Source: an uncultured virus (IMG/VR IMGVR_UViG_3300010158_000044) | Lineage: Duplodnaviria; Heunggongvirae; Uroviricota; Caudoviricetes | Reading direction: 5' to 3' (one strand) | Length of the DNA: 29,727 nucleotides | IMG/VR virus record: IMGVR_UViG_3300010158_000044 | Part shown: one piece after another, positions 525 through 24,432 of the stretch | How the letters are laid out: each line of letters opens with the position of its first letter | Position numbering within the stretch: the stretch's first letter is position 1 | Translations under genes and position numbers: made by a program | Notes under the pieces: model-generated | What the model was told of the DNA's origin: nothing | The model's database searches: none | The model's input: the letters and a program-made list of their open reading frames with translations, nothing else

Positions 525-1913
525 TTATACTAGTTGTTTAGCCCATTCTTCCAGGCGTTGGTCAATGCTTGCATCTGCAGGATGCTCTGTTACTTCACCA
601 GTATCTAGACCAAAGTCAGTCTTGATGTTGTACTCATGAGTCTGGAAGACCATGCGTACGCTGGCTTGCTCATCTGTACTAAAGTGAGCGATAAAGTTCT
701 CTGCTGCAAACTCATAGCCAAGATCGTCTACAAGCTTAGTGAACTCCATACCCATATTGGTAGAGATTGGTGTTTCATATTGACCTTTAGCAGCCTCTAC
801 ACGAAGTTGCTTCATCAATATGCGAAGAGCCTTAGAACCAATCAACTTCTCCTCAACAGCATCGTCATAATCCCAAGGGATTTGAATGTCGAAGCGATTG
901 CGGAACGCAAAGTTGAGCGGCGTGGTGCCGATATAATCTGGATTCATAGTAGCAAAGATAGTAAGGTCTGGATGAGCCTCAATAGTCTCGCCGTGATGAT
1001 CGAGCAATATAATATTGCGACGACCATCGGTCAATGAATACAGATTGGTATAGATCTTAGGATTGATGAAGTTAACCTCATCAAGCAAAAGAACGCCACC
1101 ATTGCGAACTACGTCAGTTACTGGACCATCAATCCACATGAATGCACCTTCTCCATCGGAGACGAATTTTCCAGTCATTTGACTTGGCTCCATTGATGCA
1201 TTACCAGAGATTGATGCCATACGTAAGCCACGCTCTGAGGCCCACGCTTCAACTGATGTAGTCTTACCAGGGCCAGTTGGGCCATAGATAAGCACGTTGA
1301 TACCTTCAGCACGTGCGTGGTCATAGACTTTGAAGTCTTCCACGCCCCACACCTTGCGATGTACATAGCGCTCAGCTAATTCCTTGCGTGGAACTGTTGC
1401 AAGATTTACGCTAAACACTTTGCCACCGGATGATACTGATGTGTTGTCCATTGTTTGTGTTGGCACAGGAACTACCAACGGGACTGTTGCACCAGCTTGA
1501 CGACGATTATCTATTACATATGTTTCCAATGTGTCATCTCCAATTAGTGTTTGGTCATACAGTTCATAGAGTTTATCTAAGAACGGTGTTGTATCTGTAT
1601 TAGGTTCAGCCTTAGCATGCTGATTACATGCTTTAGTTCCCAATACAGGAGAATAGCCTTTGTCTGCAATTGCCTTCTCATCTGCTGCCGTAACATATAC
1701 GCCAACAGGGGTCCGTGTCAATTGCTCATTGCTATCAATCATGTTCACGAATTGATCTACGTGAGCATCCTCCCACTTATTGTGTGGACCTTTGCTACCA
1801 TCAGTCATTCGAGACCAGATTCTGACTCCACCTTCATGCGGGGACATAAGGATTTGACGTCGCTTAGCACCCATACTTGGTTCGTAAGACTCGGTGAATA
1901 CTGCTATCTCCAT
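525..1913 (-). CDS. MoxR/CobS/CbbQ-NirQ-NorQ-like AAA+ ATPase with an unknown N-terminal domain
   Basis: Walker A GPTGPGKT, Walker B LLLDEVN, WIDGPVT, sensor-1 ATMNPDYIGT, Arg finger AFRNRF; SD GAAAGGA. Confidence 0.92.
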   Translation of the reverse strand: MEIAVFTESYEPSMGAKRRQILMSPHEGGVRIWSRMTDGSKGPHNKWEDAHVDQFVNMIDSNEQLTRTPVGVYVTAADEKAIADKGYSPVLGTKACNQHAKAEPNTDTTPFLDKLYELYDQTLIGDDTLETYVIDNRRQAGATVPLVVPVPTQTMDNTSVSSGGKVFSVNLATVPRKELAERYVHRKVWGVEDFKVYDHARAEGINVLIYGPTGPGKTTSVEAWASERGLRMASISGNASMEPSQMTGKFVSDGEGAFMWIDGPVTDVVRNGGVLLLDEVNFINPKIYTNLYSLTDGRRNIILLDHHGETIEAHPDLTIFATMNPDYIGTTPLNFAFRNRFDIQIPWDYDDAVEEKLIGSKALRILMKQLRVEAAKGQYETPISTNMGMEFTKLVDDLGYEFAAENFIAHFSTDEQASVRMVFQTHEYNIKTDFGLDTGEVTEHPADASIDQRLEEWAKQLV

Positions 1914-1924
1914 TGTGTTCCTTT

Positions 1925-2188
1925 CTAGTTGTAGTTTTCTTCGTCACGAAGAACTTGTCTTTGCATGACGACTGCTGCTTCATACATTGCTACCTTTTGT
2001 CTAGGCCATTGTGTAATGAGCTCAAACAAAAAGCCGTTCTCTTCTGCCTTCTCCATAATATAGTTCATATGGTCTTGAAGTTCAGAAATAATTTCATTTC
2101 TGACATCTTCAGGCATTTGCTGCAGTTGTTCGATAGCATCGCTACTGAACTCTGGCTCATCATCATCATCCCCACATTCGTGGCACAT
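1925..2188 (-). CDS. Small acidic hypothetical protein with N-terminal CxxC (87 aa)
   Basis: Start moved from 2296 to ATG 2188 (MCHECGDDDD), which follows SD GAAAGGA. Confidence 0.75.
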   Translation of the reverse strand: MCHECGDDDDEPEFSSDAIEQLQQMPEDVRNEIISELQDHMNYIMEKAEENGFLFELITQWPRQKVAMYEAAVVMQRQVLRDEENYN

Positions 2189-2208
2189 GATTAGTTCCTT
2201 TCTGTTAT

Positions 2209-2407
2209 TAGGTTGAGTTGGCTTACCTCCGTTGCCGCACAGGGACTGAATGCCCATCGCACCTTCTCTTTTCATCTCGCATACATTAGTTATCACGTAC
2301 TACTAATGCGTGAGCCTTTAAATTACTCGGTTCTTGAATTGATTAAGTATGATTAGAGGTGGGCTTAGCCAACTCATCCTATTTGGTATTCATATGTGAT
2401 ACCAAAC
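2209..2407 (-). ncRNA. Putative structured RNA domain in an intergenic spacer
   Basis: Long-range helix TAGG-T-TGAGTTGGCT (2209-2223) with AGCCAACTCA-T-CCTA (2367-2381), plus ACCTC/GAGGT. Internal hairpin at about 2275-2314 and an adjacent TTTGGTAT/ATACCAAA hairpin at about 2382-2407. Confidence 0.5.
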
Positions 2408-2899
2408 CTAGAGGTTTAGTGATTCTTTTTCAACGTTCCACATATTGATAGCGTTATCAGTTGTGTTAGCGATTGCTTGGTTGAAAGTCTCTGAGGTCCA
2501 TTTGCGTAAGCCAATGGCTTGATACAGAGTCTTGATGTAATTAGAGGCTTGTTGTGCCGGTACTCTCATAATTACTTCTTTTGCCAAGTCTAATTGACCT
2601 GACATATAAGCCATACTCGCTGCGTATTCACAAAGAGTAAGTTCGGTTTTTGTTTGAACATGCTCAACAGTATTTAGTGCTTGAATAAATGTTCTAGCAC
2701 ATCCTTCTGTTGAATTGCTTTTTAATGCGATCACTAAGAAAGCATCACGTAGCGCTTCTGTTTGTGTTGACCACTCAAGTAGATTGCTAGGCATAATGCC
2801 TGCACTTACATACAGAACTAATTGTTCTGCCCCATCTATTGAGCCGCTTATCTGTGGATAGACTGCTTGTGGATCATACTTAGCCGATAGGTTCGACAT
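2408..2899 (-). CDS. Helical hypothetical protein, DUF4192 C-terminal-like
   Basis: 163-aa ORF. The pattern LRDAFL...AASMAYMSGQLDLAKEVIMR...YIKTLYQAI resembles the actinobacterial DUF4192 C-terminus (recognition by eye only). Confidence 0.55.
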   Translation of the reverse strand: MSNLSAKYDPQAVYPQISGSIDGAEQLVLYVSAGIMPSNLLEWSTQTEALRDAFLVIALKSNSTEGCARTFIQALNTVEHVQTKTELTLCEYAASMAYMSGQLDLAKEVIMRVPAQQASNYIKTLYQAIGLRKWTSETFNQAIANTTDNAINMWNVEKESLNL

Positions 2900-3605
2900 A
2901 GTCTGCCACCATCCTTTCTAGTAGTGTTGCTGCTGATTTGATGATCTTTCCATCACGTAAACGAAGAGGGGTTCCATCCCACTGTGTACGCTCAGGTTTA
3001 CTTCCATAGTCTCTCTTCTTAGAGCCACTACAGAAATAACAAGTTTGGCTTCTCTTTACCATATGAGACTGATCATTTCCGTGTACACACGGCAAGCTAT
3101 GCCAGTATCTATGGCCCTTAACATCCATATCAGGATGTTTTGCGCAGGTTTGAAAGCCTTTTTCATTTATTTTGACGTTGTAACAAGTATCGGTGCTGCA
3201 CCAACCATCTAATAATCCGGTCTGTGAACATTGACGACAGCCTTGTATCTTAGGCTTACTAAGAGGGGCGCCATCTTCTTGTAAATAGAACTTATGATTA
3301 CGCTGGAATACTTGAATACCTGCGTAACGTTGGATAGTAAGACGTACTGAGTGACTGCGTAATGGGTTCCAAGTACTGCCCCAATGTGTAACTGTATCTA
3401 TACCGCTGATAACAGTTGTTCCGTCTTTATGGAAGGTAACGAACTTACTTGTTCCTCCACCAAAGTGCCAACCTATATTTATGGGACTATCAGCGTCCCA
3501 TTTGTTTTCTTTCCAGATGCGAAGACCTCTATCATATAAAGGACGCTCATACTTCTTGCGACCTCCAGATAAGAAAGTCGAACCCCAATTCCAATCAGGA
3601 ATCAT
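2880..3605 (-). CDS. Hypothetical protein with a Cys/His-rich Zn-binding region (DnaJ-like CxxCxxxG)
   Basis: 241-aa ORF with CRQCSQTG and CYFCSGSK plus further Cys/His; TAATG-coupled to the upstream gene. Confidence 0.75.
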   Translation of the reverse strand: MIPDWNWGSTFLSGGRKKYERPLYDRGLRIWKENKWDADSPINIGWHFGGGTSKFVTFHKDGTTVISGIDTVTHWGSTWNPLRSHSVRLTIQRYAGIQVFQRNHKFYLQEDGAPLSKPKIQGCRQCSQTGLLDGWCSTDTCYNVKINEKGFQTCAKHPDMDVKGHRYWHSLPCVHGNDQSHMVKRSQTCYFCSGSKKRDYGSKPERTQWDGTPLRLRDGKIIKSAATLLERMVADYVEPIG

Positions 3606-3916
3606 TAATCAACCTCCTCATAAAATAATGATACTTTGCTCTGCTGTTGTAAGTCAAACATCCGCTCACGCAGACGCTCAACCTGTTTTGCTGGTTCTTC
3701 TTCCTCATAAAAAGAAAGACTAATGGGGAAGATCGGTGCTTCTTGTGCGGGTTGATTTGACAATAAGCCAATTACCATGCCAAGACCATCGATTATGCCG
3801 GCACTATAAGAGCGCATTACTTGGCTCTCTTCGAACTGGCTATCTTGATGTTCTTCCCACATTAACCGATTGATCTTGTCAATCAGTCCCTTGCGCTTAA
3901 CCAGTAACTTTCGCAT
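3605..3916 (-). CDS. Hypothetical protein
   Basis: 103-aa ORF with SD AAGGAGG. Confidence 0.75.
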   Translation of the reverse strand: MRKLLVKRKGLIDKINRLMWEEHQDSQFEESQVMRSYSAGIIDGLGMVIGLLSNQPAQEAPIFPISLSFYEEEEPAKQVERLRERMFDLQQQSKVSLFYEEVD

Positions 3917-3937
3917 ACTGGTACCTCCTTATGGGTA

Positions 3938-3963
3938 AGCCCCCGCCATTGCTGACGGGGGCT
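3938..3963 (-). other. GC-rich stem-loop with GCAA tetraloop (processing or stabilising hairpin, or weak terminator)
   Basis: Minus strand AGCCCCCGTCA-GCAA-TGGCGGGGGCT (one U-G pair); no real U-tract follows. Confidence 0.65.
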
Positions 3964-3979
3964 GGTTTGTTTGTGTTGG

Positions 3980-4414
3980 TTAGCGAATGAATGACGCCCA
4001 TGTAGATGATGAACTGATCTTGAATTCAGTATCAGTTGCACCATCAATTAGAGCGATAGCATTTTGTACTTGCTCATACTCAGATACAGCATCATGACGA
4101 GTATTTTTGTACTGTGGTTCACGCTCATTAGTTGGGCGTTCACCTAGCGCAGCCTCAGCCAATTCAATATTAAATGAATAGGTTAAAGAGAATCGATTGT
4201 GATACTTATTAGTATCAACCTCGTAAGCTTTAGCTACATTCTTTTTAGCCCATGCTTTGGCTTTGCTATCCCAAGCGTCTTGACGCTTGTTGAGAGTTGA
4301 TTGGTTCTTTTCCCATTCACTTATCTCTGCGTCCATACGCTTGAGTGTTTCGGTTAGTTTCTTGACTAAGTCTTTCTTAGCCCAAGTTGTTGCGATGACC
4401 TTGTTACTGGCCAT
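3980..4414 (-). CDS. Hypothetical coiled-coil protein
   Basis: 144-aa ORF with SD AAGGAGG. Confidence 0.8.
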   Translation of the reverse strand: MASNKVIATTWAKKDLVKKLTETLKRMDAEISEWEKNQSTLNKRQDAWDSKAKAWAKKNVAKAYEVDTNKYHNRFSLTYSFNIELAEAALGERPTNEREPQYKNTRHDAVSEYEQVQNAIALIDGATDTEFKISSSSTWASFIR

Positions 4415-4427
4415 AGCACGCCTCCTT

Positions 4428-4733
4428 TTAGTTAGGTGGTGTTACAGGGACTCCTGCAACATATTCATTCTCTTGGCTATCAATAACCACGAGAGTGTTT
4501 TCAACGTAGGCATTGCCTACTGGCGTTTCTCCAATCGTTGCGTAAACCAATGCGCTCTTCAGACTCTGAAGCTCATCTTCGGTAAGGTGCAAGAGCTTGG
4601 TTTTTGCTAAACGATCGACCATACCTATAACACGACCAGCACACTCTAGACGAGTGGCATCTTCGGTCAAGTCATCGGAATATTTTTTCTCTTTGAGGTA
4701 GTCCAAAGAGTAGACTTTGAGGTTATTAGGCAT
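4428..4733 (-). CDS. Hypothetical protein
   Basis: 101-aa ORF overlapping the upstream stop codon. Confidence 0.75.
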   Translation of the reverse strand: MPNNLKVYSLDYLKEKKYSDDLTEDATRLECAGRVIGMVDRLAKTKLLHLTEDELQSLKSALVYATIGETPVGNAYVENTLVVIDSQENEYVAGVPVTPPN

Positions 4734-5019
4734 TAGACATAGCCTCTAACTTCTCAGGATCAAATGCCGGAGTTAGAGATGTTGCTGTGTACACCTTTCC
4801 TGTTTTCCAATGAGGAATTGATTTGTGGTTCCAACGACCACCCATAGCCTTCCAAGCTTCACGCTTGGCATTACTAGCAGCACTGCGACCATTCACGTGA
4901 GTGAAGTTAGTCTTTTCTGGCTGTGCTGGGCCTGGGTTTTTCTTGCGTGCTTTACCGTTCTTACGGTCGCCCGCTGTGTTTACTTTAGGAGCTGGTGCTC
5001 CTCCTCTACCTTTTGCCAT
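4726..5019 (-). CDS. Small basic Lys/Gly-rich hypothetical protein
   Basis: 97-aa ORF (MAKGRGGAPAPK...) with SD GAAAGGGG. Confidence 0.75.
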   Translation of the reverse strand: MAKGRGGAPAPKVNTAGDRKNGKARKKNPGPAQPEKTNFTHVNGRSAASNAKREAWKAMGGRWNHKSIPHWKTGKVYTATSLTPAFDPEKLEAMSNA

Positions 5020-5039
5020 TGTCTGGCCCCTTTCGGAGG

Positions 5040-5195
5040 TTAGTTGATTGTCTCTACACGAGTGTATAGAGTGTTGATGCCATCATTCCATAGCATCAAT
5101 GCTTCGTTGCGTGTGAGGCCATAGAATAACTGGGCCTCTATAATGAACAGGTGCTTGCCGATGAATGTGTCGGGCGTTGTTTGTGTTGGTTGCAT
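5040..5195 (-). CDS. Small hypothetical protein (51 aa)
   Basis: Manual translation MQPTQTTPDTFIGKHLFIIEAQLFYGLTRNEALMLWNDGINTLYTRVETIN; TAATG-coupled to the upstream gene and fills the gap. Confidence 0.6.
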   Translation of the reverse strand: MQPTQTTPDTFIGKHLFIIEAQLFYGLTRNEALMLWNDGINTLYTRVETIN

Positions 5196-5434
5196 TAGAT
5201 ATGCCAATCTAATAGATCAGTTGTTCCCCATTTACGATAGGGTGCATCTATGATGCTATATAACTTCCACCATCTATACCCTGCTTTGGGCATAGTCTCT
5301 TCGTTCTCATACTTAATTTCATATCTTAATGCTTTATGCAATGGGTATGAAGATAAGTGGTCGCACCAATTAGCAAACCATCTAAGAGGTAATACATTTG
5401 TTTTGTGTATCGGTGTGGTTTTAAAATCTTCCAT
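5195..5434 (-). CDS. Trp-rich small hypothetical protein (79 aa)
   Basis: Start moved to ATG 5434 (MEDFKT), which follows SD GAAAGGA. Confidence 0.7.
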   Translation of the reverse strand: MEDFKTTPIHKTNVLPLRWFANWCDHLSSYPLHKALRYEIKYENEETMPKAGYRWWKLYSIIDAPYRKWGTTDLLDWHI

Positions 5435-5453
5435 TGTTATCCTTTCTATTAGA

Positions 5454-5576
5454 TGAGCAGTTTTAATCATCGTGCTCAGGATGTTTGGCGTAGGCGAGGA
5501 TACTTTTTACTCCTAGGAGCTATCACTATCGTGCCATACCAATTATGGTGAGCAGTTTAACCTCATTGCTCAGGAG
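5454..5576 (-). repeat. Twin ~30-nt repeats foldable as H-type pseudoknots (5454-5483 and 5549-5576)
   Basis: Minus strand CATCCTGAGCACGATGATTAAAACTGCTCA and CTCCTGAGCAATGAGGTTAAACTGCTCA. Confidence 0.7.
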
Positions 5577-5613
5577 TCGTGTTTTACCTCAGGTCTCGCC
5601 AGACCAACTGTCA

Positions 5614-5817
5614 CTAGTAAATTGGAGTAATCTTTACAAGATCTTCTTCCAATTTAGTAGAGACATATTTGCCACTCTCTCGAGTGGATTCGTAACAACC
5701 TTTCCAAGTTTCGTGATAGGTATCAGTACCATTGCGGACTCTGATTTCTAGCTTGGATTGGTGTGATTGTATTCTCCGACCACAGTTGTTACAGTATTGC
5801 AAGGCGGGTTTCGCCAT
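5614..5817 (-). CDS. Small putative Zn-finger protein (67 aa)
   Basis: Start at ATG 5817 after SD AAGGAGG; CNNC...HxxxxxC. Confidence 0.72.
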   Translation of the reverse strand: MAKPALQYCNNCGRRIQSHQSKLEIRVRNGTDTYHETWKGCYESTRESGKYVSTKLEEDLVKITPIY

Positions 5818-5872
5818 TGCGGTACCTCCTTTTAGCAGGTACATCCCACTACTTGTGGGAATACTAATACAG

Positions 5873-5897
5873 ATGGGGGTTGCTAGGCAACCCCCAT
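5873..5897. other. Perfect 11-bp stem-loop
   Basis: ATGGGGGTTGC-TAG-GCAACCCCCAT, with a second hairpin TCCCAC/GTGGGA just to its left. Confidence 0.65.
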
Positions 5898-5960
5898 ACT
5901 GTCAGTTATCCAGGATTAAAGAGGGATTGGACAATCAGTTCAATCCATAACTCACGATGG

Positions 5961-6077
5961 CTATGGGTATCGTAAAGGGCTCAGACCAGGGGTTCGGATA
6001 CATCTATTAGCGAACTCATTACTGAGTAAAGCGTTCGAAGCCTTAGCAACTGCTTTGCCTAATTTCTCAATACACAC
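5961..6077 (-). CDS. Possible 38-aa peptide
   Basis: GTG start after SD GAAAGGA: MCIEKLGKAVAKASNALLSNEFANRCIRTPGLSPLRYP. Confidence 0.4.
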   Translation of the reverse strand: MCIEKLGKAVAKASNALLSNEFANRCIRTPGLSPLRYP

Positions 6078-6100
6078 TCGATATTCCTTTCATTGGTTGT

Positions 6101-6331
6101 CTATACAACCAGGACACACACTAAACGAACTACAAAAGGACCTTTACTCATCTTCGGGTTTACCTTTTCCACAGCCCTGTTAGTGAGTAGATTCTAGGAA
6201 TCTATCCGATACGCCACTGCGCTCAACAACTGTGGGGAATTACAAGCATAGAACGCTAAGTTGAACAGACAACCGCTGCGTCGTGCTTATCCTTTGAGTG
6301 TAGGTGTTTAGTGTGTGTCCTGACTGTACAG
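6101..6331 (-). ncRNA. Putative ~230-nt highly structured RNA
   Basis: Perfect 17-bp inverted repeat at 6110-6126/6306-6322, extended outward by 9 bp (three G-U pairs, valid only on the minus strand) and inward by 5-bp and 7-bp helices, enclosing a multi-branch core. Confidence 0.7.
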
Positions 6332-6374
6332 GCGGGGATTGTTTGTGTTGGAGCGACAGTTAGTATTAGTTACT

Positions 6375-6617
6375 CTATGACCTTCTGCTCTCATAGTCTG
6401 AGATTGCTTCTTGTATTGTTCGTCCATAATCCCCTTGTACACACATACCTGAGTCTTCCATATATGTGTGAACAACAAAAGGGGTTACTTTATTGTGGGC
6501 TAGAAAACACAGCACTATTGTTGTGTTTGGATATATGCCCGGCTTACAGGCTAGTACAAGCCCTTTGTTAGATTCAATATTAGTACCTATACTGATAACT
6601 GTTATATCGTCAGTCAT
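6375..6617 (-). CDS. Small hypothetical phage protein
   Basis: 80-aa ORF with SD AAGGAG. Confidence 0.78.
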   Translation of the reverse strand: MTDDITVISIGTNIESNKGLVLACKPGIYPNTTIVLCFLAHNKVTPFVVHTYMEDSGMCVQGDYGRTIQEAISDYESRRS

Positions 6618-6652
6618 TGCTTATCTCCTTTTTCCATAGCCTACGCATACGC

Positions 6653-6883
6653 CTAGACCAACGCTTCTTGTTGGGTAAGGAAGTTGCTGCATTCGAGCGC
6701 CTCAATTCCTGAATCCTTTGTACCTTGGACTTGTCCTTGTTGGGATAACTGCGGAACATAGATAGTCTCCTTTATCTGCATAGCCATTACCTGTTGAATG
6801 ATTGCAAGACATAGCAAGTGCTTGTCGTGCTGAGTGATAGCACCTGCCTTACTTATCTTGGCTGTTACTTGTAGCGTGTTCAT
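6653..6883 (-). CDS. Small hypothetical protein
   Basis: 76-aa ORF with SD-like AGGAAGG. Confidence 0.6.
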   Translation of the reverse strand: MNTLQVTAKISKAGAITQHDKHLLCLAIIQQVMAMQIKETIYVPQLSQQGQVQGTKDSGIEALECSNFLTQQEALV

Positions 6884-6905
6884 TGTTGCCTTCCTGTAGA
6901 GGGAT

Positions 6906-6948
6906 AAAAGAAGGGCGGGGAGAGCCCCCTCTAGCTCTCAACCCGCCC
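6906..6948 (-). terminator. Rho-independent terminator
   Basis: Minus strand GGGCGGG-TT-GAGAGC...GCTCTC-CCCGCCC followed by TTCTTTT. Confidence 0.7.
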
Positions 6949-6982
6949 GGTGTCTACGTAGATGTAGACCTCTCACATAATG

Positions 6983-7111
6983 CTACTTATTGAGCGTCTC
7001 CTTGAGGAGTTTGACTTGCAGACGCATAGTGCCGACTTCGGCAAGGGTTGCGATACAAAACTCCTCTAACTTGCTGAGATGTTCGTCAATAATGCGGGCT
7101 AACTCTTCCAT
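6983..7111 (-). CDS. Small helical hypothetical protein (42 aa)
   Basis: Manual translation MEELARIIDEHLSKLEEFCIATLAEVGTMRLQVKLLKETLNK; SD AGGAG. Confidence 0.6.
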   Translation of the reverse strand: MEELARIIDEHLSKLEEFCIATLAEVGTMRLQVKLLKETLNK

Positions 7112-7242
7112 TGCTCGTCTCCTAACGATACGGATACATTAAACGGACCGACTTGGATAGCAATCTCTTTAGAGAATGAATACCAAGCGACATTAAGTGC
7201 AATACCCCAATTGCGTGGGGTAATTATCCAATGTAGGTGCAT
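7099..7242 (-). CDS. Small hypothetical protein (47 aa)
   Basis: Manual translation MHLHWIITPRNWGIALNVAWYSFSKEIAIQVGPFNVSVSLGDEQWKS; SD GAAAGGA. Confidence 0.6.
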   Translation of the reverse strand: MHLHWIITPRNWGIALNVAWYSFSKEIAIQVGPFNVSVSLGDEQWKS

Positions 7243-7301
7243 TGTCTTTCCTTTCTTATAGGTGGTGCGTGGGTTGTTTGTGTTGGTACGCCCCCGCCGG
7301 C

Positions 7302-7599
7302 AGAAAATTGGCGGGGAAACTTACTTTAGTGTATATAATTCAACAGCCTTAGTTTCATACTCCATAACCTGTTCAGTTATAACATAGCCAATTACATCAC
7401 TGTCTTGAGCATCTGTTATTAGTTCGGCTACAACCTTCATAGTTCCATCACACATCTCAAAGAAAAATGTGCGTGAAGCATCAGTTACCTCAGAAGGGCA
7501 TTGACGATAGAGCATCTCAAACATAGGGTTATCCTGACTTATAACAGGGTTTAATCCCATCTACTTCTCCTTTCTGTAGAAAATTGGCGGGGAAACTTA
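7302..7599. repeat. 22-bp perfect direct repeats (7302-7323 and 7578-7599) flanking one gene
   Basis: AGAAAATTGGCGGGGAAACTTA occurs twice, each copy including the TAA of a minus-strand gene. Variants at 7980-7997 and 9314-9331; core GGCGGGGA also at 6331-6338. Confidence 0.85.
7321..7560 (-). CDS. Small acidic hypothetical protein
   Basis: 79-aa ORF with SD AAAGGAG. Confidence 0.78.
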   Translation of the reverse strand: MGLNPVISQDNPMFEMLYRQCPSEVTDASRTFFFEMCDGTMKVVAELITDAQDSDVIGYVITEQVMEYETKAVELYTLK

Positions 7600-7809
7600 T
7601 TTGTTGAGGGTATAGTGTGTCTCGTATGTAGAGATAAACGAGAAGGCACCGGCACAGGTATAGCAATACACTTCAGTAGGCACGCCTAGCATAAAGGCAT
7701 CAGTACCGGAGTAGACGAGTTTGGTGGATTCACAATTAGGGACAGCACACACCTTTGGAGCGGGCTTGGTGTGTTGGGAACATACGTATGAGCCTAGGCA
7801 ACCGCACAT
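7597..7809 (-). CDS. Small Cys-rich Zn-finger-like protein
   Basis: 70-aa ORF with CxC..CxxH, CxxxxC and CxxC; abuts the upstream stop codon. Confidence 0.7.
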   Translation of the reverse strand: MCGCLGSYVCSQHTKPAPKVCAVPNCESTKLVYSGTDAFMLGVPTEVYCYTCAGAFSFISTYETHYTLNK

Positions 7810-7941
7810 TTACTTAGCCTTTGCCTTAGCCTTACAGGTCTTACATACATAAGACGAGCCGATAGTAACGAGGTGCATTACTTCAGCCCCGCGTATCTCT
7901 TGCTTGCTCTTGCACTTAGCGCAATAGATGGTTGCGTTCAT
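7810..7941 (-). CDS. Small zinc-ribbon protein (43 aa)
   Basis: Manual translation MNATIYCAKCKSKQEIRGAEVMHLVTIGSSYVCKTCKAKAKAK (two CxxC); SD GAAAGG. Confidence 0.7.
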   Translation of the reverse strand: MNATIYCAKCKSKQEIRGAEVMHLVTIGSSYVCKTCKAKAKAK

Positions 7942-7983
7942 AGCATTACCTTTCGTGGGTGGGATTGTTTATGTCGGGCGAAA

Positions 7984-8390
7984 ATCGGCGGGGATACCGA
8001 TGGCTCTCTGTGTAGATAGAGAGTGAGAGAGACATAAGGAACAGAGACCATACACGCTCACTAAGAAGCCTCAGTCATAAGTCTTATGTCTCTTCCACTA
8101 ACTACCTAGTAACTACCTGCTCATAGAGTAGCCCCCTAGCCGTAGGCCTGGTGGTACTCACAATGATCATAGATAGTTGCCGACAGTAGCCTGAATAGAC
8201 TCCCCACTCCCAATGATGGGAGATAGGGAGCCTATTCGTTAGCAGGACACCGAATTGCGGGCGTGGATTGCTCTGGGGGGCTAGACATTACACCTAGCAC
8301 TGAGCCGATTGGTCGGCATACCCCATCTATGACCATAGAGACTATGACCATAGATAGAGGCAGGGGGAGAACCTAATCCCCCCCTGCTCT
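7984..8390 (-). ncRNA. ~400-nt non-coding region dense in nested inverted repeats (putative structured RNA or regulatory region)
   Basis: Helices at 8028-8038/8083-8093, 8129-8136/8276-8283, 8193-8237 (G-U pairs on the minus strand) and 8360-8387; tandem CTATGACCATAGA. No ORF of 60 aa or more in the track. Confidence 0.55.
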
Positions 8391-8404
8391 ACCGAGTTAT
8401 GCGA

Positions 8405-8977
8405 TTAGGAGATTAACGCTGGCTCTGGTGCGCTCATAACTGCCTTGACCTTCGCTGAAGTCTTGGCAGATTCGTAACGCTTGATGACCGCCTTGAGTGC
8501 CTTGATGTAGTCATCTTGCTCTTCATCTGGTGTGAAGACAATAGACTCATCATCTAAGCGAGAAGCAGACTTAAGGAGTGCCTTGCCACCTACGCCAGAA
8601 GTATTATCTTCTTGACGCTTGGCTTGGCTTACCTTAGTTAGACGCTTGACCGCCTTCTTGTATGACTCGACAACCTTCTCGAAGGTGTCGGCTTTCATTA
8701 CAGAGCGATACACTTCGGACTTACCAAGACGAGCCATCTTGTAGACGGCTGTCTTGTTCTCCTTAGTTGCGCCGTAGGTATAAAGCAACCAACCACCCAT
8801 AGCAAGACGACGGACTTCATCAGACTTTATTAGGTCTGATGCGTCGTTTATTGTGCTGTGGGGGAATTGTGCGAATACCCCTGCCACTTTTACAAAGCGG
8901 GCGGTTACTGCTGTTTCGCTATTGCCTTCTTCTAGGAAGATAGGCTCTAACGCTGTTGCTAGTGTGTGTGTGGACAT
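8405..8977 (-). CDS. Basic helical hypothetical protein, first gene of the leftward arm
   Basis: 190-aa ORF with SD AGGAGG. Confidence 0.8.
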   Translation of the reverse strand: MSTHTLATALEPIFLEEGNSETAVTARFVKVAGVFAQFPHSTINDASDLIKSDEVRRLAMGGWLLYTYGATKENKTAVYKMARLGKSEVYRSVMKADTFEKVVESYKKAVKRLTKVSQAKRQEDNTSGVGGKALLKSASRLDDESIVFTPDEEQDDYIKALKAVIKRYESAKTSAKVKAVMSAPEPALIS

Positions 8978-9401
8978 AATACTCCCCTCCTAAGGGAGAG
9001 AGAGCAGGGCCACTCGCCCTGCTCCCACCACCCCTGCTAGACTAGACGCCTAGCAGGGACAGAAGAAGCAGAGCGCACCACGCCCGCAGTATCTCTCGGC
9101 TTCCTACCGATACATACAACGATAAAAAATACATTCGACACCTTTGTCCCCCCCTACCCTTAAGTCGTTTAAGTCGTGTTTGTCCGCCAGGTGAGACGCA
9201 GGGTTGGGACTATTTTGAGCTATACAGTGGCCAAGGCAGTGTCCGATTTGTGACTTTGATCATAGTTTGATAAGTTGTGAGCGTAAAAACGGGTAACTCT
9301 CATCATAGTTGGTGAAAAAATGGCGGGGAATATGCTAAACTTCATGCAGAGTGCTCAAAATGAGGCTCTAATTAACTAATTTCGTCTAAGGAGAAATTAA
9401 A
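8978..9401. promoter_or_regulatory. Divergent control region between the leftward and rightward arms
   Basis: Strand switch; three hairpins (8982-8998, 9002-9024, 9032-9058); tandem TAAGTCGT at about 9160-9178; ATCATAGTT twice; extended -10 TGCTAAACT at 9333-9341. Confidence 0.6.
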
Positions 9402-9851
9402 ATGGCAACATTTACTACTGGTTTAACACCAGATCGTTCAGAAATCACAATCTCAAACCTCTTTCCTCAGTTCAATCGCTGGGCAATCGGGTTTGATCCA
9501 CTATTTGACACATTTTCTCGTGTCTCTAGTGCAAAATCGAGCGGGTATCCTCCATACAACATCTTCAAATATAAGGACAATTACGTCCTAGAGATCGCTG
9601 TAGCAGGATTTGCTAAGGAAGATATCACCATCACTGTGAAAGAGCTTCAGCTGACCGTAGAAGGCGTTAAATTGCCATCTGTGGACGAGTATGTGCACAA
9701 GGGAATTGCTAACCGTGACTTCAAGCAGGACTTCGTATTAGCGGAGTATGTAGTAGTCAAGGGAGCAGAGATGAAGGATGGATTACTACGCATTAATCTA
9801 GCTCAGGAGCTACCCGAGGAGAAGAAGCCAAAGGTTATTGAAATCGCATAA
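9402..9851 (+). CDS. ibpA: Small heat-shock protein, Hsp20/IbpA family
   Basis: IGFD, YPPYNI, LEIAVAGF, YVHKGIANRDF, MKDGLLRI, PEEKKPKVIEI (IxI motif). Confidence 0.95.
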   Translation: MATFTTGLTPDRSEITISNLFPQFNRWAIGFDPLFDTFSRVSSAKSSGYPPYNIFKYKDNYVLEIAVAGFAKEDITITVKELQLTVEGVKLPSVDEYVHKGIANRDFKQDFVLAEYVVVKGAEMKDGLLRINLAQELPEEKKPKVIEIA

Positions 9852-9855
9852 TCTC

Positions 9856-9864
9856 TGGTAGAAT
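9856..9864 (+). promoter_or_regulatory. Extended -10 promoter element
   Basis: TGGTAGAAT (TGn-TAnnnT), followed by hairpin GCCTCAGTAGG/CCTACTGGGGC at 9878-9904. Confidence 0.5.
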
Positions 9865-9926
9865 ATTTAATAAGGACGCCTCAGTAGGTTATGCCTACTG
9901 GGGCTCCACAATTTTAGGAAGTAAAG

Positions 9927-10019
9927 ATGGATTTAGTAAAAGAAAAAGAAGTAAAAGAGTTAACAGAGCAAGAGAAGCAAGATCTATTCTGGCAGAGCCA
10001 AGTAAGCTTTGAGGAGTAA
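9927..10019 (+). CDS. Acidic micro-protein (30 aa)
   Basis: MDLVKEKEVKELTEQEKQDLFWQSQVSFEE; SD-like AGGAAG. Confidence 0.5.
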   Translation: MDLVKEKEVKELTEQEKQDLFWQSQVSFEE

Positions 10020-10052
10020 CTACATCAAGGCTTCCCGCCGAAAGGAGACGAA

Positions 10053-10157
10053 ATGCTAGATGTGTTATGTTATGACTGTGGAGTAATGTTCCAAGTTGAA
10101 GAAGGAACCAAGAATCCGACTAAGGCTCACAAGGAGTGCAAGAATGCCAACCTATGA
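10053..10157 (+). CDS. Micro zinc-binding protein (34 aa)
   Basis: MLDVLCYDCGVMFQVEEGTKNPTKAHKECKNANL (CxxC...HxxC); SD AAAGGAG. Confidence 0.6.
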   Translation: MLDVLCYDCGVMFQVEEGTKNPTKAHKECKNANL

Positions 10158-10314
10158 CTTTAGATGTGAACGCTGTAAGGTAGTCCATGAGATTACCCGT
10201 TCTTTTACTGATGTGAATACACCACCCTGCCCCGGGTGTGGCGATGAGCTAATCCGCATTTGGCAAGCAACCCCCGCACACTTTAAAGGTGGCGGCTGGG
10301 CTGGTAAAGAGTAG
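10144..10314 (+). CDS. FmdB-family zinc ribbon protein (56 aa)
   Basis: MPTYDFRCERC...CPGCG...FKGGGW signature; SD AAGGAG; start moved to ATG 10144. Confidence 0.9.
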   Translation: MPTYDFRCERCKVVHEITRSFTDVNTPPCPGCGDELIRIWQATPAHFKGGGWAGKE

Positions 10315-10323
10315 ACTTGACCA

Positions 10324-16885: not shown

Positions 16886-16890
16886 TAGCC

Positions 16891-17067
16891 ATGTCTCTAT
16901 CGGAGATCTTTAAGTCTTATTACCCTAAAGGCAATAAGCTACCTAAGAACTTGCGTAATAACGCACGTGAGGCTGCAACCTATCTAACAGGCATCCCATA
17001 TGAGTCTGATCCAGATGCTATGAAGCCTATCGGTCGTGCAGGAAGATCATCGGGGTCTAATAACTAA
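16891..17067 (+). CDS. Small hypothetical protein (58 aa)
   Basis: Manual translation MSLSEIFKSYYPKGNKLPKNLRNNAREAATYLTGIPYESDPDAMKPIGRAGRSSGSNN; TAATG junction with the next gene. Confidence 0.65.
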   Translation: MSLSEIFKSYYPKGNKLPKNLRNNAREAATYLTGIPYESDPDAMKPIGRAGRSSGSNN

Positions 17068-17276
17068 TGGGGCTTAATAACGACACTATCTACACCCATG
17101 GTGGAGAGCTTAATGGTAAAGGCTTGCACAAATGGCATTGCCTTAGCTGTCCATGGACACAGACTGCTCTAGGTGGTAGTAAAGAGCAAAATGCCGGGCA
17201 GCGCAAGGCTGAAGCCCACAGATGCTATGATTCATCTAAGGATGCACAAGCAAGGCGTAGGGATATCTATGGATAA
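17067..17276 (+). CDS. Small putative Zn-binding protein
   Basis: 69 aa with WHCLSC...AEAHRC. Confidence 0.65.
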   Translation: MGLNNDTIYTHGGELNGKGLHKWHCLSCPWTQTALGGSKEQNAGQRKAEAHRCYDSSKDAQARRRDIYG

Positions 17277-17323
17277 CAACTTTGAGTTTTCAATAGGGTC
17301 TGCACAACAAGAGGAGAAAAATA

Positions 17324-18585: not shown

Positions 18586-19109
18586 GCTAAAGGTGCTGCT
18601 TTAAGCCAGTACTTTACAACGTTTGTTGAAACACCACCATTATAAGAATTTCTTCCTACTCCCCAGCTACCCCAATTACGGCCTCCAGAGGTCATCTGGA
18701 AGGCTATCTTGGCATTGGTAACGGGATTATATAGGTCAGTAGCTGAAACAAGCCCATACTGGCTTACACGGGCTTTTAAGGCACCATATAAGTTAATCTG
18801 AAACATCCCATAAGAATTATCCCCAGTACGAGGATTAAAGTTATGAGATAAAGGATTTCCATGGGATTCTTTCATTGCCACTGCCCAGGCAACCTTCAAG
18901 CTTTGTCCTTGAAAACCTGTTAGGCGTAAAAGGTCATATAGTTGAATTTGGCTGAGCTTTCTCATACCGGAGTATTTGAGAACGGGGTCTACGCACGTGG
19001 GGACCACCTTGGCTGTGACAGCTCTAGCTGTCGAGGTAAACGAGTTTGTTATTGCTAGTACTACTGAGAGCACTACTACCGCTAGTTTTCTTTTTCCATT
19101 AAAATGCAC
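18582..19109 (-). CDS. Secreted lysozyme-like/SLT lytic transglycosylase
   Basis: Signal peptide (KRK, hydrophobic stretch, ARA), catalytic AVAMKES, SYGMFQIN, LYNPVTNAKIA, NWGSW; GTG start after AGGAG. Confidence 0.88.
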   Translation of the reverse strand: MHFNGKRKLAVVVLSVVLAITNSFTSTARAVTAKVVPTCVDPVLKYSGMRKLSQIQLYDLLRLTGFQGQSLKVAWAVAMKESHGNPLSHNFNPRTGDNSYGMFQINLYGALKARVSQYGLVSATDLYNPVTNAKIAFQMTSGGRNWGSWGVGRNSYNGGVSTNVVKYWLKAAPLA

Positions 19110-19260
19110 ACTATCTCCTAGGCTTGAGAGCCAACCCGAATCCTCATCCAACTGTCACTTGGATGAAAATAGCCCGGCGTCTGTCTGCCAAGCTAGTTGC
19201 AACCCTTTTGTTTCGTTGTTAGTGTTAGAGGCTATGACCCCTCTATGAAATACTGTACCA
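19110..19260 (-). promoter_or_regulatory. Extended -10 promoter and multi-hairpin 5' leader of the transglycosylase gene
   Basis: TGGTACAGT at 19260-19252, then hairpins AGAGG/CCTCT, TAGCTTGGC/GCCGGGCTA, TCATCCAA/TTGGATGA and a short stem abutting the SD. Confidence 0.55.
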
Positions 19261-19391
19261 GTAAATACAGGGTTAGCGCAACAACCAAATATGTATGAGA
19301 TACTATAGACCTGTATAAACTGGCCTGAAAGGACCTTATATGGCAAAATGCGTATCAAAGATCCTCATGGCAAGGAAAGCAAAGGTACAAG

Positions 19392-19664
19392 ATGAGAATA
19401 GAACGAATAGTAACGAAGCAGGGACATCCAGTTCCGAAAACAGCACACAATCCTAAGGGACCGTTTCCACCAGAGATTTACCAAAGAACAGAAGTTGTTA
19501 CGGATTATGTTCCATTTGATGATGATATTCCGACAGGGGCGACAGCACAAAATGAATTTAAAGAACCAAAAATCTTCAAGTGCCGCTTCTGCCAGCAACT
19601 TGTGTATGAGCACAAAATTCCAGACCACGTATGTGAGGGCATCGAAGATGGCGAAGACGCATGA
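19392..19664 (+). CDS. Hypothetical protein with a C-terminal CxxC...HxC finger
   Basis: 90 aa with FKCRFC...DHVC. Confidence 0.75.
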   Translation: MRIERIVTKQGHPVPKTAHNPKGPFPPEIYQRTEVVTDYVPFDDDIPTGATAQNEFKEPKIFKCRFCQQLVYEHKIPDHVCEGIEDGEDA

Positions 19665-19947
19665 TGTTGGAGATTATTACTGGCACTTTATGGTGTACCC
19701 GGTAAAACCACCAAGCATTATAGAAAAAGCAGAAACACAAGAGATTGACGGCAAATACCGTGGTGGACATGGGTGGGTAACCCGACTTCCATTTACACGG
19801 TATGCTTTAGTCATTGGAAAATGGACTAAGGCCTATGATGAAAGCTCTGCGTTAACAAGAGCGATTATAGGTCGCCCAATGAAGCAAGATGAAGTTGATT
19901 GGGACAAAATACGATTTGGGGCAGAGAATGTTCAAGAAGAAGAGTAA
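19648..19947 (+). CDS. Hypothetical protein (99 aa)
   Basis: Start moved to ATG 19648 (MAKTHDVG), overlapping the previous gene end. Confidence 0.7.
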   Translation: MAKTHDVGDYYWHFMVYPVKPPSIIEKAETQEIDGKYRGGHGWVTRLPFTRYALVIGKWTKAYDESSALTRAIIGRPMKQDEVDWDKIRFGAENVQEEE

Positions 19948-20161
19948 GTTAGCAAAAGAATTAACAAAAATACAAAAGCGTGTACAGATGCTGCCTACGG
20001 CAGAACTTCTTACATGGAGCGACCAAATAATGTATACAGTTGGTCGTAATCTATCTGCATGGCAGAAAAGTCAAAATCCTTTCTCTTTAGAGGAAGCCAG
20101 AGTGGGCGCAGAAGCGTTGCACGCAATCGTAGACGCATTAAGCGAAAGGTCGATTAAGTGA
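19928..20161 (+). CDS. Small helical protein immediately upstream of terminase (77 aa)
   Basis: Start at ATG 19928 (MFKKKSK); GTGA overlap with terL. Confidence 0.7.
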   Translation: MFKKKSKLAKELTKIQKRVQMLPTAELLTWSDQIMYTVGRNLSAWQKSQNPFSLEEARVGAEALHAIVDALSERSIK

Positions 20162-21747: not shown

Positions 21748-21834
21748 TTATTGTATTTACTAAGACAGATCTTATAGTTTTAGCGAATAATAATACCCGA
21801 GGACCTCAATCCCAACCCTATAGGAGAATAAACA

Positions 21835-22242: not shown

Positions 22243-22260
22243 TTACTGTATACTAATGTC

Positions 22261-22284
22261 GTCCCCGGTCGCAAGGCCGGGGAT
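22261..22284 (+). terminator. GNRA-capped stem-loop (terminator-like, no U-tract)
   Basis: GTCCCCGGTC-GCAA-GGCCGGGGAT. Confidence 0.45.
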
Positions 22285-22300
22285 AACATAAGGGAGAAAC

Positions 22301-22570: not shown

Positions 22571-22596
22571 GGGCAAACAATGATGGGATTTAATCG

Positions 22597-24321: not shown

Positions 24322-24432
24322 GCATTAAGCCTGCAAATACTTCAAGTATTTGACAGACTGTATACCAAACTAACCCGCAGGTCATCGTGGCACTAATTCG
24401 GACAACGACCTCTTAAACCTAAAGGAATAATC

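Follow-up and report, generated by a model that had tools for sequence, protein, structure and literature searches.

Conserved RNA structures with exchangeable interiors in the spacers of a mosaic gene module of a freshwater phage

The spacers at positions 2209-8390 of the window, the 29,727 nt stretch of DNA that was analysed, were confirmed to encode conserved RNA structures in which a fixed basal helix or fixed flanks surround an exchangeable interior. The window is part of a freshwater phage genome of ~100 kb. This genome encodes WhiB, and the phage is therefore probably an actinophage. Region 2209-8390 lies at the promoter-proximal end of a ~14 kb module. This module is transcribed against the rest of the genome, and small gene cassettes are arrayed along it as a mosaic. 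The structures in these islands are real and evolutionarily conserved, making them genuine new RNA elements. On balance the islands at the cassette junctions probably act in cis on processing, stability and translation, and carry cargo RNAs. Their most likely job would be the cutting up and stabilising of a long messenger.

Folding energies of the spacers were compared to 200 dinucleotide shuffles per spacer on both strands. On the minus strand the z scores were -3.59 (2209-2407), -3.47 (5454-5604), -4.63 (5844-5897), -5.88 (6101-6331) and -5.80 (7984-8390), with 0/200 shuffles as low as the real spacer in each of the five. The claim of an earlier note that every large spacer folds back on itself was thus borne out for five of five (minus-strand z -3.5 to -5.9). 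The plus strand folds almost equally well (-3.70, -2.73, -5.43, -5.89 and -5.27, respectively), so energy alone cannot choose the strand. Across 297 background segments (120 nt, transcribed strand) the mean z was -0.81 (sd 1.40) with 6.1% below -3, and low values were also found in coding segments (4401-4520, -4.0; 5001-5120, -4.6). Spacer thermodynamics by itself is only moderately unusual. Long-range closing helices had also been proposed and three were found, 81-93% complementary, in 6101-6331, 2209-2407 and 7984-8390. The proposed pseudoknots were not recovered, as a scan for non-nested covarying helices returned 4-bp candidates only.

Compensatory changes were present in the alignments for all five spacers and were well above shuffled and slid controls in the fetched relatives. 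Most relatives were fetched using the basal 18-mer, the invariance of which is partly ascertainment. With 6-10 mutually related sequences per alignment, few and related enough for shuffle controls to overstate significance, 27 of 45 pairs in the alignment of domain C and hairpins H3 and H4 (A5) had changed on both sides compared to 11.5 ± 2.1 in shuffles (0/500) and 2-10 in the slid control. The same limit applies to domain B (A4, nine sequences), where 9 of 61 pairs were compensatory compared to 3.9 ± 1.4 shuffled (0/500) and 0-1 slid. Compensatory pairs numbered 14 of 31 in domain D (A7, seven sequences), including five of the ten long-range pairs, and 9 of 41 in domain A (A9). Element E2 (A8, eight sequences) had changes on both sides in 8 of 22 pairs. 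Consensus folding and four different GNRA tetraloops identify the mRNA (minus) strand as the one that folds. The consensus energy was better in sense than in antisense in all three comparisons (-64.4/-55.1, -38.9/-24.6 and -23.7/-15.9), and one hairpin was GNRA-capped on the sense strand in 6 of 10 sequences (GUAA, GCAA, GAAA or GAGA). The motif-3 stem had C-to-U changes which yield U-G on the sense strand. The earlier polycistron proposal was partly supported: its placing of conserved structures on the mRNA strand stood, with the 'early' character of the arm and its processing into small RNAs as putative parts.

Domain C (5898-6100, minus strand) is a conserved non-coding structured RNA with no conserved frame in 11 genomes. 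It contains a GNRA-capped hairpin at ~6018-6031 and a strongly covarying hairpin at ~5948-5970. Domain C was absent from the list in the earlier note, which also missed the swappable interiors and the location of a 13-mer at mosaic block edges. On the same strand follow two covarying hairpins, H3 (5873-5897), which is G+C-rich, precedes CUGUAUUAGUAUU and has five unrelated stem sequences among the relatives, and H4 (5844-5861); the spacer that holds both, 5844-5897, had the z of -4.63. The next hairpin, GUACCU...AGGUAC (5818-5842, minus strand, z -3.28), was found in 11 of 13 loci and encloses part of the SD of a 76-aa zinc-ribbon gene with its ATG at 5826-5824. A compensated version, CTAAC/GTTAG, is present in relative L025.

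In domain A (5454-5613, minus strand, z -3.47) the hairpin CCUGAG(C/U)A..UAAAACUGCUCA occurs twice (5549-5574 and 5454-5480). The domain also has long-range helices, and its middle (~5490-5541) is variable. In three relatives a tRNA-Arg lies within this island, 1-3 nt after the conserved hairpin, and a stable RNA must therefore be excised from the spacer there, which lends indirect support to the earlier proposal. No tRNA was found in the window itself. Domain D (2209-2407, minus strand, z -3.59) has a 5' hairpin (2381-2407), a variable interior and a long-range helix in which 2209-2223 pairs with 2367-2381 (15 nt, 93% complementary). In domains A and D the long-range helices measure 5-15 bp, which is short for RNase III. 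A GAAAGGA SD had been reported just after two of the domains. The spacing was correct (2209, 6 nt; 6101, 9 nt), but the second SD has no conserved frame, as the 38-aa GTG frame behind it was not conserved in 10 relatives.

The islands would act in cis on a polycistronic transcript. Their 20-26 bp stems may be cut or may just be barriers. The obvious candidate nucleases are host RNase III, which would act on the stems, and RNase P, which would act on the tRNA. Cutting would split the message and leave the flanking mRNAs with protective end hairpins, while the interior RNA would be freed as by-product or cargo. The islands may also set access to the next ribosome-binding site, as suggested by the SD after domain D and the one inside the conserved hairpin. 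As DNA, the conserved flanks together with the 13-mer could supply homology for cassette swapping. In phage T7 early mRNA the RNase III substrates are hairpins lying between genes, and helix length and position there match the islands here. Common to both are long double-stranded stems in polycistronic spacers near the next ribosome-binding site, and the stems here, if cut, would likewise leave protective end hairpins. Unlike those of T7 the stems here enclose large swappable interiors (~180-230 nt of RNA, or a tRNA in the neighbouring island). The host, too, is probably actinobacterial, similarity is lacking both in sequence and in Rfam, and cleavage is putative.

Domain B (6101-6331, minus strand) combines a 26-bp closing helix, 6101-6126 pairing with 6306-6331 (26 nt, 88% complementary, 179 nt apart), with a ~180-nt interior termed type 1 RNA (~6127-6305). 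The helix has three mismatched positions, each of which forms G-U when read on the minus strand, in agreement with the earlier note, and G-U is common at these pairs across relatives. The 3' arm has an alternative pairing with 6094-6100 (UGGUUGU/ACAACCA). The type 1 interior is a covarying four-helix RNA with conserved unpaired stretches. Some relatives have this ~180-nt RNA as the interior, and in others its place is taken by a 230-nt RNA unrelated to it or by just a plain hairpin. Type 1 was missing or replaced in five relatives (L007, L010, L011, L012 and L036) and in one contig of run X4, which has few mismatches, skips 6112 to 6326 and carries 38 other letters instead. The unrelated interior of L007 had a z of -7.55 and no sense-strand ORF wholly within it. 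The plain hairpins had z scores of -5.61 (L011), -4.99 (L012) and a weak -1.88 (L010).

These interiors, above all type 1, may instead be trans-acting stable small RNAs, either host-takeover regulators or anti-defence decoys, which the stems only excise. The multi-helix form, unpaired conservation and covariation of type 1 are consistent with this, as are its presence or absence among near-identical strains, like accessory genes, and the tRNA at the equivalent cargo position of another island in relatives. The tRNA clusters of phage T4 similarly include co-processed stable RNAs of unknown function. As there, a tRNA and structured RNAs lie within one phage transcript and need excision; unlike there, each island holds one cargo between protein genes. 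RNA data were two metatranscriptome runs in the form of contigs, without strand or true ends, and in these the islands were not visibly better covered than coding parts. One 151-nt contig lay within type 1 (6148-6298), but its depth of 2.7 was similar to that of scattered coding contigs, and no accumulation was seen. Against a trans-acting role, no Rfam family matched the RNA structures of the window, and neither target nor mimicry was found. Type 1 was found at one locus only, as all three matches in viral contigs were the known loci and all 15 in species-representative genomes were chance 19-mers. It is also dispensable in several relatives. Such a role is unlikely.

The 13-mer CCAACACAAACAA (motif 1) marks the 5' edges of conserved mosaic blocks, almost only on the sense strand. 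Block 5' ends lay within 15 nt of a copy in 16 of 59 cases (chance 1.9%) and 3' ends in 1 of 59. Five copies are exact, and with up to two mismatches nine matches were found compared to 1.14 expected; of these nine, the left arm has seven on its minus strand. Sense and antisense copies numbered 10 and 1 in 23.4 kb of this genome and 12 and 1 in a second genome, G002, and antisense copies were absent from eight other loci. All eight forward copies in G002 lie within 10 kb of its 100 kb. The 13-mer adjoins hairpins, as had been noted, for example at two minus-strand sites. At 7270-7318 motif 2, a short G+C hairpin and motif 1 stand 32 nt before the ATG at 7242, and at 3939-3979 motif 1 is followed by the hairpin GCCCCCG..CGGGGGC (z -5.05), an SD and the ATG at 3916. 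The latter is a block 5' edge in six relatives. The minus strand also carries motif 2 (ATCCCCGCCGATTTT) then a motif 1 variant (CCGACATAAACAA) at 7961-7995, 24 nt before the ATG at 7941. The copy at 6339-6351 (minus strand) directly adjoins the 5' side of domain B, a place it keeps in 14 of 15 related loci, and is a block 5' edge in 7 of 10 non-duplicate relatives. A further copy (5177-5189, minus strand), a block 5' edge in four relatives, lies just 3' of the start codon of a 51-aa frame and is read as PTQT; copies within genes read as (P/S)TQT.

This distribution could point to promoter/terminator cassettes similar to PeSLs (promoter-early stem-loop cassettes). The hairpins would then end or attenuate transcription, the 13-mer would serve as promoter or as an orientation-dependent, stoperator-like operator, and conservation would reflect transcription control and recombination, not RNA processing. 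In the excerpted text of PMC2839356 and PMC4122927, PeSLs of T4-type phages are motif-plus-stem-loop units between the small genes of a hyperplastic region, and they mark the boundaries where relatives differ by insertion, deletion or replacement. The islands share the short motif and stem-loop between small genes of unknown function and the position of the 13-mer at indel and mosaic edges. Compared to PeSLs as excerpted there, the 13-mer has no sigma-70-like promoter, and the structures are far larger, covary as RNA and belong to a different phage lineage. In cluster A mycobacteriophages, L5 among them, the stoperators as excerpted from PMC9283540 are likewise 13 nt, asymmetric, multi-copy and oriented with transcription. 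The 13-mer resembles them in asymmetry, copy number and single orientation, often just past stop codons in short intergenic spaces. It is restricted to one ~12 kb module whereas stoperators, in that excerpt, are spread over the whole genome; its sequence is unrelated and several of its copies fall within genes. A repressor with the HTH and stoperator domain described there was not detected, and the 190-aa first-gene protein had no PDB or Pfam match. The start-associated sequences (SAS) and extended SAS of cluster K mycobacteriophages, in the excerpted text of PMC3203893, are 13-bp one-orientation repeats upstream of a subset of genes from different families, some extended by adjoining inverted repeats with a variable spacer. 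Orientation and, in cases, nearby inverted repeats are shared. According to that excerpt SAS extend over the ribosome-binding site, and their distance is short and constant, whereas the 13-mer has no SD complementarity and is 9-50 nt from starts or inside genes, and the neighbouring inverted repeats enclose up to 230 nt.

Terminator-like hairpins (8357-8390, 5873-5897 and a scan match at 6911-6929) also fit transcription control, as does a terminator hairpin at the far end of the module with a tail that is the reverse complement of the 13-mer. Most hairpins, on the other hand, lack a U run, and multi-helix domains, GNRA loops and ~200-nt interiors exceed what a terminator needs. Sigma-70-type promoter matches numbered 12 compared to 18.8 in shuffles, none at the 13-mer, which also had no fixed -10-like element after it. 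This explanation was judged quite unlikely.

Part of region 7984-8390, namely the palindromic boxes and the TATCAGGTAG repeats, looks like DNA-level sites. A G+C-rich minus-strand hairpin (8357-8390) lies directly 3' of the 190-aa first gene, is part of the MFE structure of the spacer (z of segment 8301-8420, -5.80) and is terminator-like without a clean U run; it is kept in three relatives. Two tandem palindromic, operator-like boxes CTATGGTCATAG (8326-8354, neither strand; repeat families D8 and D5) are conserved in relatives, with related boxes at 8161-8173, 9250-9267 and 9293-9310. Element E2 (8114-8263, minus strand) has an invariant helix, GGUG.CCUG/CAGG.CUAC, around a hairpin with four unrelated sequences among relatives, and two of its G-U pairs are invariant on the sense strand. 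Hairpin E3 (8013-8108, minus strand, inverted repeat I2) has 26-nt arms (8013-8038 and 8083-8108, 81% complementary), a conserved basal helix and a variable apical part. Relatives have one or two E3 units with TATCAGGTAG on the flanks, and the DNA contig of run X4 that skips 6112 to 6326 has 8037-8084 replaced by 152 other letters.

The features could therefore act as DNA, as a replication origin or operator region with iterons and palindromes, mainly at 7984-8390, or as attC-like single-stranded recombination hairpins. The boxes recur in a divergent promoter region, the TATCAGGTAG repeats flank hairpin units as well as a zinc-finger ORF that is inserted in L006, and conserved arms around a variable centre are also found in the attC sites of integrons. 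Folded DNA tolerates G-T wobble too, but RNA is favoured by the GNRA tetraloops and by the G-U pairs that many helices form on the sense strand. A scan of 13 module ORFs in G002, each 100 aa or longer, showed no integrase or recombinase, the arms read without attC core motifs and each element is single-copy per genome. Action as DNA is very improbable.

That the spacers are unannotated small protein genes with coding conservation is barely credible, as the short frames (38 aa, 5961-6077; 39 aa, 8232-8351; 37 aa, 7938-8051) are broken or shifted in relatives, spacer indels are not multiples of three and paired columns covary. A tiny frame, MKGxSSx, stands 3' of domain B in 5 of 11 genomes and would fit coding. 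The earlier note's picture of a right arm with mostly short spacers and simple hairpins was not confirmed. The right arm has gaps of ~390-470 nt (9852-10323, 16886-17323 and 18586-18975) and holds some strong hairpins (26701-26820, z -5.5).

Conserved structures of the minus (mRNA) strand were found at the junctions between gene cassettes in the leftward arm. Their stems are fixed and their interiors exchangeable, and in relatives a tRNA is one of these interiors. The genes of the leftward arm lie on the minus strand between about 9000 and 1. From 9402 the rightward arm encodes Hsp20, a large terminase, an SPP1-type portal, a capsid protein and a collagen-repeat fibre. The nearest cultured matches of the terminase were Streptomyces phages (52%), and the DNA runs containing this stretch were labelled freshwater or lake. 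The phage is probably a freshwater actinophage. A search of phage records by DNA gave no match. G001, a viral record of 42 kb, is 100% identical to the window over 2000-8500. G002 is a relative of 100,206 nt with terminal repeats, is about 75% identical to the window and encodes WhiB, RecA, a family A DNA polymerase, a DnaB-like helicase, a primase, a ribonucleotide reductase and a CHAP lysin. There the arm corresponds to a module of 14.5 kb, at about 17.8-32.3 kb, whose transcription opposes that of its neighbours. The module is presumed to be early solely because it adjoins the divergent control region and holds many small ORFs without a known function. PHROG and Pfam searches with the small proteins were informative only for a MoxR-like AAA ATPase, vWA and Hsp20. 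The small-gene array ends in a pair, a MoxR/CobS-like AAA ATPase (525-1913) followed by a protein (3-515) with a vWA domain in G002.

Two diverged genomes, L003 and L004, were obtained by protein search. Further relatives were sought with an 18-mer probe taken from the 6101-6331 helix (3' arm), and a locus was counted as true when its flanks were related as well. This retained 7 of 9 loci in viral contigs and 9 of 27 in metagenome contigs, the other 2 and 18 being dropped as unrelated coding matches. Invariance of the 18-mer among the loci fetched with it is partly ascertainment, since it was the probe. It is also present in L003 and L004, which were found independently of it.

The earlier note had described the five large spacers of the left arm as self-folding, and all were more stable than 200 dinucleotide shuffles on both strands. 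The minus-strand z scores (200 shuffles each) were -3.59 for 2209-2407, -3.47 for 5454-5604, -4.63 for 5844-5897, -5.88 for 6101-6331 and -5.80 for 7984-8390. The long-range closing helices are real, as in the 26-nt arms at 6101-6331 and 8013-8108. Folding energy by itself is suggestive at best because background windows are not neutral: 297 windows of 120 nt had a mean z of -0.81 and 6.1% fell below -3, coding windows among them.

Covariation was examined in homologous spacers, and pairs changed on both sides were found in all five alignments. In the type 1 interior of domain B, the 6101-6331 structure, 9 of 61 pairs had changed on both sides among 9 sequences (A4; shuffled controls 3.9 ± 1.4, 0/500 reaching 9; slid controls 0-1). 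In domain C and the hairpins following it (5815-6100) the count was 27 of 45 pairs in 10 sequences (A5; shuffled 11.5 ± 2.1, 0/500 reaching 27; slid 2-10). Both controls were run on these two alignments. The other three alignments gave 14 of 31 pairs in 7 sequences for domain D at 2209-2407, including 5 of 10 long-range pairs (A7), 8 of 22 in 8 sequences for the hairpin element E2 at 8114-8263 (A8) and 9 of 41 in 6 sequences for domain A at 5454-5613 (A9). Unrelated stem sequences also occupy the same place with the same shape, with five versions of the hairpin at 5873-5897 and four of the E2 inner hairpin. Shuffle counts overstate significance because the sequences are few and related to each other; the slid controls and whole-stem replacements are the stronger covariation argument. 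Pseudoknots, also proposed earlier, were not borne out, as a scan for non-nested covarying helices gave no supported helix.

The comparison with Rfam 15 gave no family at gathering score across the whole window (0 matches). Permissive searches returned what was read as noise, just four sub-threshold matches in 1900-9420 (three miRNA and one snoRNA, E 0.76-4.6) and one sub-threshold snoRNA match in 5440-6360 (E 3.5). The motifs are without an Rfam family, and "not described" is judged against Rfam 15 alone. Structured RNAs of phage early regions are known in a few model phages and are hardly charted in uncultured lineages. The present set comprises several covariation-supported motifs of this kind in abundant freshwater phages.

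The basal helix of 6101-6331 (CTATAC.../...GTTGTATAG) was present in all relatives, with stems of 19-27 bp. Its interior was the type 1 RNA of about 180 nt in nine loci. In L007 it was an unrelated sequence of about 230 nt (z -7.55) with no ORF lying entirely within it on the sense strand, and in L010, L011, L012 and L036 the site held a plain hairpin of 19-23 bp. A low-mismatch contig from the DNA runs skipped from 6112 to 6326 with 38 other letters instead, resembling the plain hairpin. The same contig had 152 letters in place of 8037-8084, the apex of the 8013-8108 hairpin. In the domain A island a tRNA-Arg was predicted by ARAGORN in the sense orientation (minus strand in the stored loci) in three relatives: tRNA-Arg(TCT) at L025:3371-3444 and L028:2559-2632, and tRNA-Arg(CCT) at L041:2172-2245. 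The window and six other relatives are without it. The tRNA lies 1-3 nt past the first conserved hairpin and directly ahead of an ATTGGTA block that the window also has. No tRNA or tmRNA was predicted by ARAGORN in the window. A tRNA-Asn (L004:3072-3145) lies in the G002 right arm near the counterpart of the 472-nt gap at window 9852-10323, and this gap holds no tRNA. Each element occurs once per genome, and on this ground a reading as dispersed (MITE-like) repeats was rejected. The conserved stems with interchangeable interiors, a tRNA among them, are a clear case that ties RNA processing signals to mosaic genome evolution.

On balance the islands probably act in cis on the transcript. Their stems of 20-26 bp would serve either as cleavage sites or as barriers. 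In this way they may divide the message, make it more stable and modulate the ribosome-binding site that follows, and the interior would be freed as cargo. RNase III sites of the T7 type are double-stranded stems, about two helical turns long, between the genes of a polycistronic transcript. The 26-nt arms at 6101-6331 and 8013-8108 and the 19-27 bp stems in relatives are like these, and the helices of domains A and D are shorter. The 2209 and 6101 domains had been said to end 6-9 nt before a GAAAGGA Shine-Dalgarno (SD) sequence. The spacing stood, with an SD 6 nt after domain D and GAAAGGA 9 nt after domain B, and the second site has no conserved reading frame behind it. The SD of the zinc-ribbon gene lies within a conserved hairpin.

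That the interiors are themselves trans-acting cargo RNAs is unlikely. The exchange of interiors fits such a role, but type 1 was found at no other locus: all 15 matches to a type 1 19-mer in a genome-collection scan shared just the 19-mer, and a viral scan returned just the 3 known loci. Also doubtful is a wider modular "RNA cassette" system, in which the basal stem would be a universal docking and excision site for swapping stable RNAs (tRNA, type 1, type 2), types 1 and 2 would act in trans, and the 13-mer CCAACACAAACAA and the stems would serve as recombination handles. If it were true, the stems would let a lineage express a tRNA, the ~180-nt type 1 or the ~230-nt type 2 from its early message. 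Host takeover or counter-defence would be the role of types 1 and 2, as trans-acting phage RNAs of new classes, and the 13-mer and stems would double as handles moving RNA and protein cassettes. The coordinates and alignments offer a concrete basis for examining the delivery of non-coding cargo RNAs by early transcripts of phages.

Exact copies of the 13-mer numbered 5 in the window, every one of them minus-strand, and with up to 2 mismatches there were 9 matches where 1.14 were expected. At this threshold sense and antisense copies numbered 10 and 1 in 23.4 kb of this genome and 12 and 1 in the G002 module, with 0 antisense copies in eight further loci. All 8 forward copies in G002 (up to 1 mismatch) lie within 19156-29029 of its 100,206 nt. 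Many copies come after a stop codon and lie 9-50 nt ahead of a start, and others are intragenic, read as (P/S)TQT. One copy (1451-1463) lies within the MoxR/CobS-like ATPase gene. With the near-duplicate loci L011, L021, L028, L036 and L040 left out, 16 of 59 BLAST homology blocks had their 5' end no more than 15 nt away from a copy, where chance predicts 1.9%, and just 1 of 59 had its 3' end near one. The 13-mer therefore heads conserved blocks in the mosaic. In both G002 and this genome, the terminator hairpin at the far end of the module has a U-rich tail that reads as the 13-mer in reverse complement (L043:12060-12125 and L047:9515-9575, respectively), so that on the opposite strand the 13-mer comes before a terminator for the convergent genes. 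TTCCCCGCCAATTTT is a second repeat, found in 4 copies on the minus strand (7304-7318, 7580-7594, 7981-7995 and 9316-9330), two of which share the same 23-nt context directly after stop codons. TCCCCGCC is common to this repeat and the extension of the 13-mer at 6351.

Transcription control of a PeSL or stoperator kind would account for such repeats but is rather improbable. PeSL cassettes are repeated units with a strong sigma-70-like early promoter (PMC2839356, PMC4122927). The present units likewise lie at indel or replacement borders, by the 16/59 block 5' ends and the interior swaps at 6112/6326 and 8036/8085, but a consensus scan found no sigma-70-type promoter at the 13-mer. That scan, which covers the sigma-70-type consensus only, gave 12 sites versus 18.8 in shuffles. 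A -35 role for the 13-mer, paired with a TAnnnT box 3' of it, was rejected for inconsistent spacing (17-23 nt, or the box absent), and there is no fixed -10-like element 3' of the 13-mer. Stoperators are asymmetric 13-nt sites in many copies whose orientation follows transcription (PMC9283540), and the phage 13-mer is likewise asymmetric, multi-copy and tied in orientation to transcription direction. Stoperators are spread genome-wide and bound by a monomeric immunity repressor (PMC9283540), whereas the 13-mer is confined to one G002 segment (19156-29029) and no repressor-like protein was found by sequence. The start-associated sequence of cluster K (PMC3203893) has a short fixed distance to the start codon and partial 16S complementarity, unlike the 13-mer with its 9-50 nt range and intragenic copies. 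The 13-mer at cassette borders is comparable to the still unexplained mycobacteriophage repeats. Integron attC-like cores were absent from the arms on reading.

The strand evidence points to RNA or, at the least, to folding of the minus strand. Consensus folds were better in sense than in antisense in all three alignments compared (-64.4/-55.1, -38.9/-24.6 and -23.7/-15.9). In the conserved hairpin of domain A, C-to-U is accepted in many copies and gives U-G on the sense strand. The G-U count (123 G-U versus 19 A-C cells in predicted pairs) is biased because structures were predicted on the sense strand. GUAA, GCAA, GAAA or GAGA caps one hairpin in 6 of 10 sequences, the hairpin being absent in 2 and having other loops in 2. 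This evidence makes it improbable that the elements are DNA-level sites, a reading that has most plausibility at 7984-8390, with its palindromes and TATCAGGTAG repeats. Palindromic boxes CTATG(G/A)TCAT(A/T)G at 8326-8354, 8161-8173, 9250-9267 and 9293-9310, which lie past the first gene and within the divergent control region, resemble operators of a dimeric regulator. Hairpin units are flanked by TATCAGGTAG-like repeats at L006 about 1100-1290 (sense), L009 about 1390-1470 and window 8105-8135. In L006 the repeats enclose a small inserted Cys-rich ORF, as though modules had been placed between them.

Hidden small genes in the spacers are very improbable, as the 38-aa GTG frame at 5961-6077 was not conserved among relatives. 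Stops shift in all three frames across 11 genomes and indels are not multiples of three, so the whole stretch of about 525 nt that separates the ATG at 5826 from the 5' edge of the 13-mer copy at 6351 is non-coding, this copy included. The spacers 6101-6331 and 5844-5897 are parts of this single island. A frame of 7-8 codons, MKG(I/L/T)S(S/G)x, at 6068-6094 (minus strand) begins 3 nt past a conserved ACAACCA in 5 of 11 genomes and may be a leader peptide, or just RNA conservation. The idea that spacers are more conserved than genes was rejected, identity to G002 being 65-86% for islands versus 77% for the adjacent zinc-ribbon gene.

Two metatranscriptome runs contained phage parts, as contigs from which strand, ends and level are not readable. 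They are taken to show only that phage sequence was present in RNA libraries. The longest covered the 190-aa first gene (8406-8981 and 8492-8987) and hsp20, and scattered 151-nt contigs included 6148-6298, inside type 1. Contigs of runs X9 and X20 left 8001-8400 and most of 5201-7200 uncovered. Contigs of two studies end at 8981 and 8987, just 3' of the leader hairpin (9003-8984) of the 190-aa gene, where a DNA contig continues. These stops hint weakly at the 5' end of an RNA, or else the assembly broke at the hairpin. The ends at 8981/8987 and 8406 adjoin hairpins, which can break assemblies, and were not used as evidence. In the Atlas the 190-aa protein matched only hypothetical viral clusters, with a poor model (pLDDT 0.57). 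Its candidacy as a repressor was dropped, not disproved, there being no PDB match better than E 0.3.

The terminator scan listed 6911-6929 (minus strand). No clean U run accompanies the hairpins at 8357-8390, 5873-5897 and 3939-3962, and the G002 module-end hairpin has one. An inverted repeat with 26-nt arms lies at 9015-9075 in the leader of the first leftward gene (window 9001-9120, z -4.67). In the structural arm a strong local fold at 26701-26820 (z -5.53), after the gene at 26388-26753, is probably a terminator.
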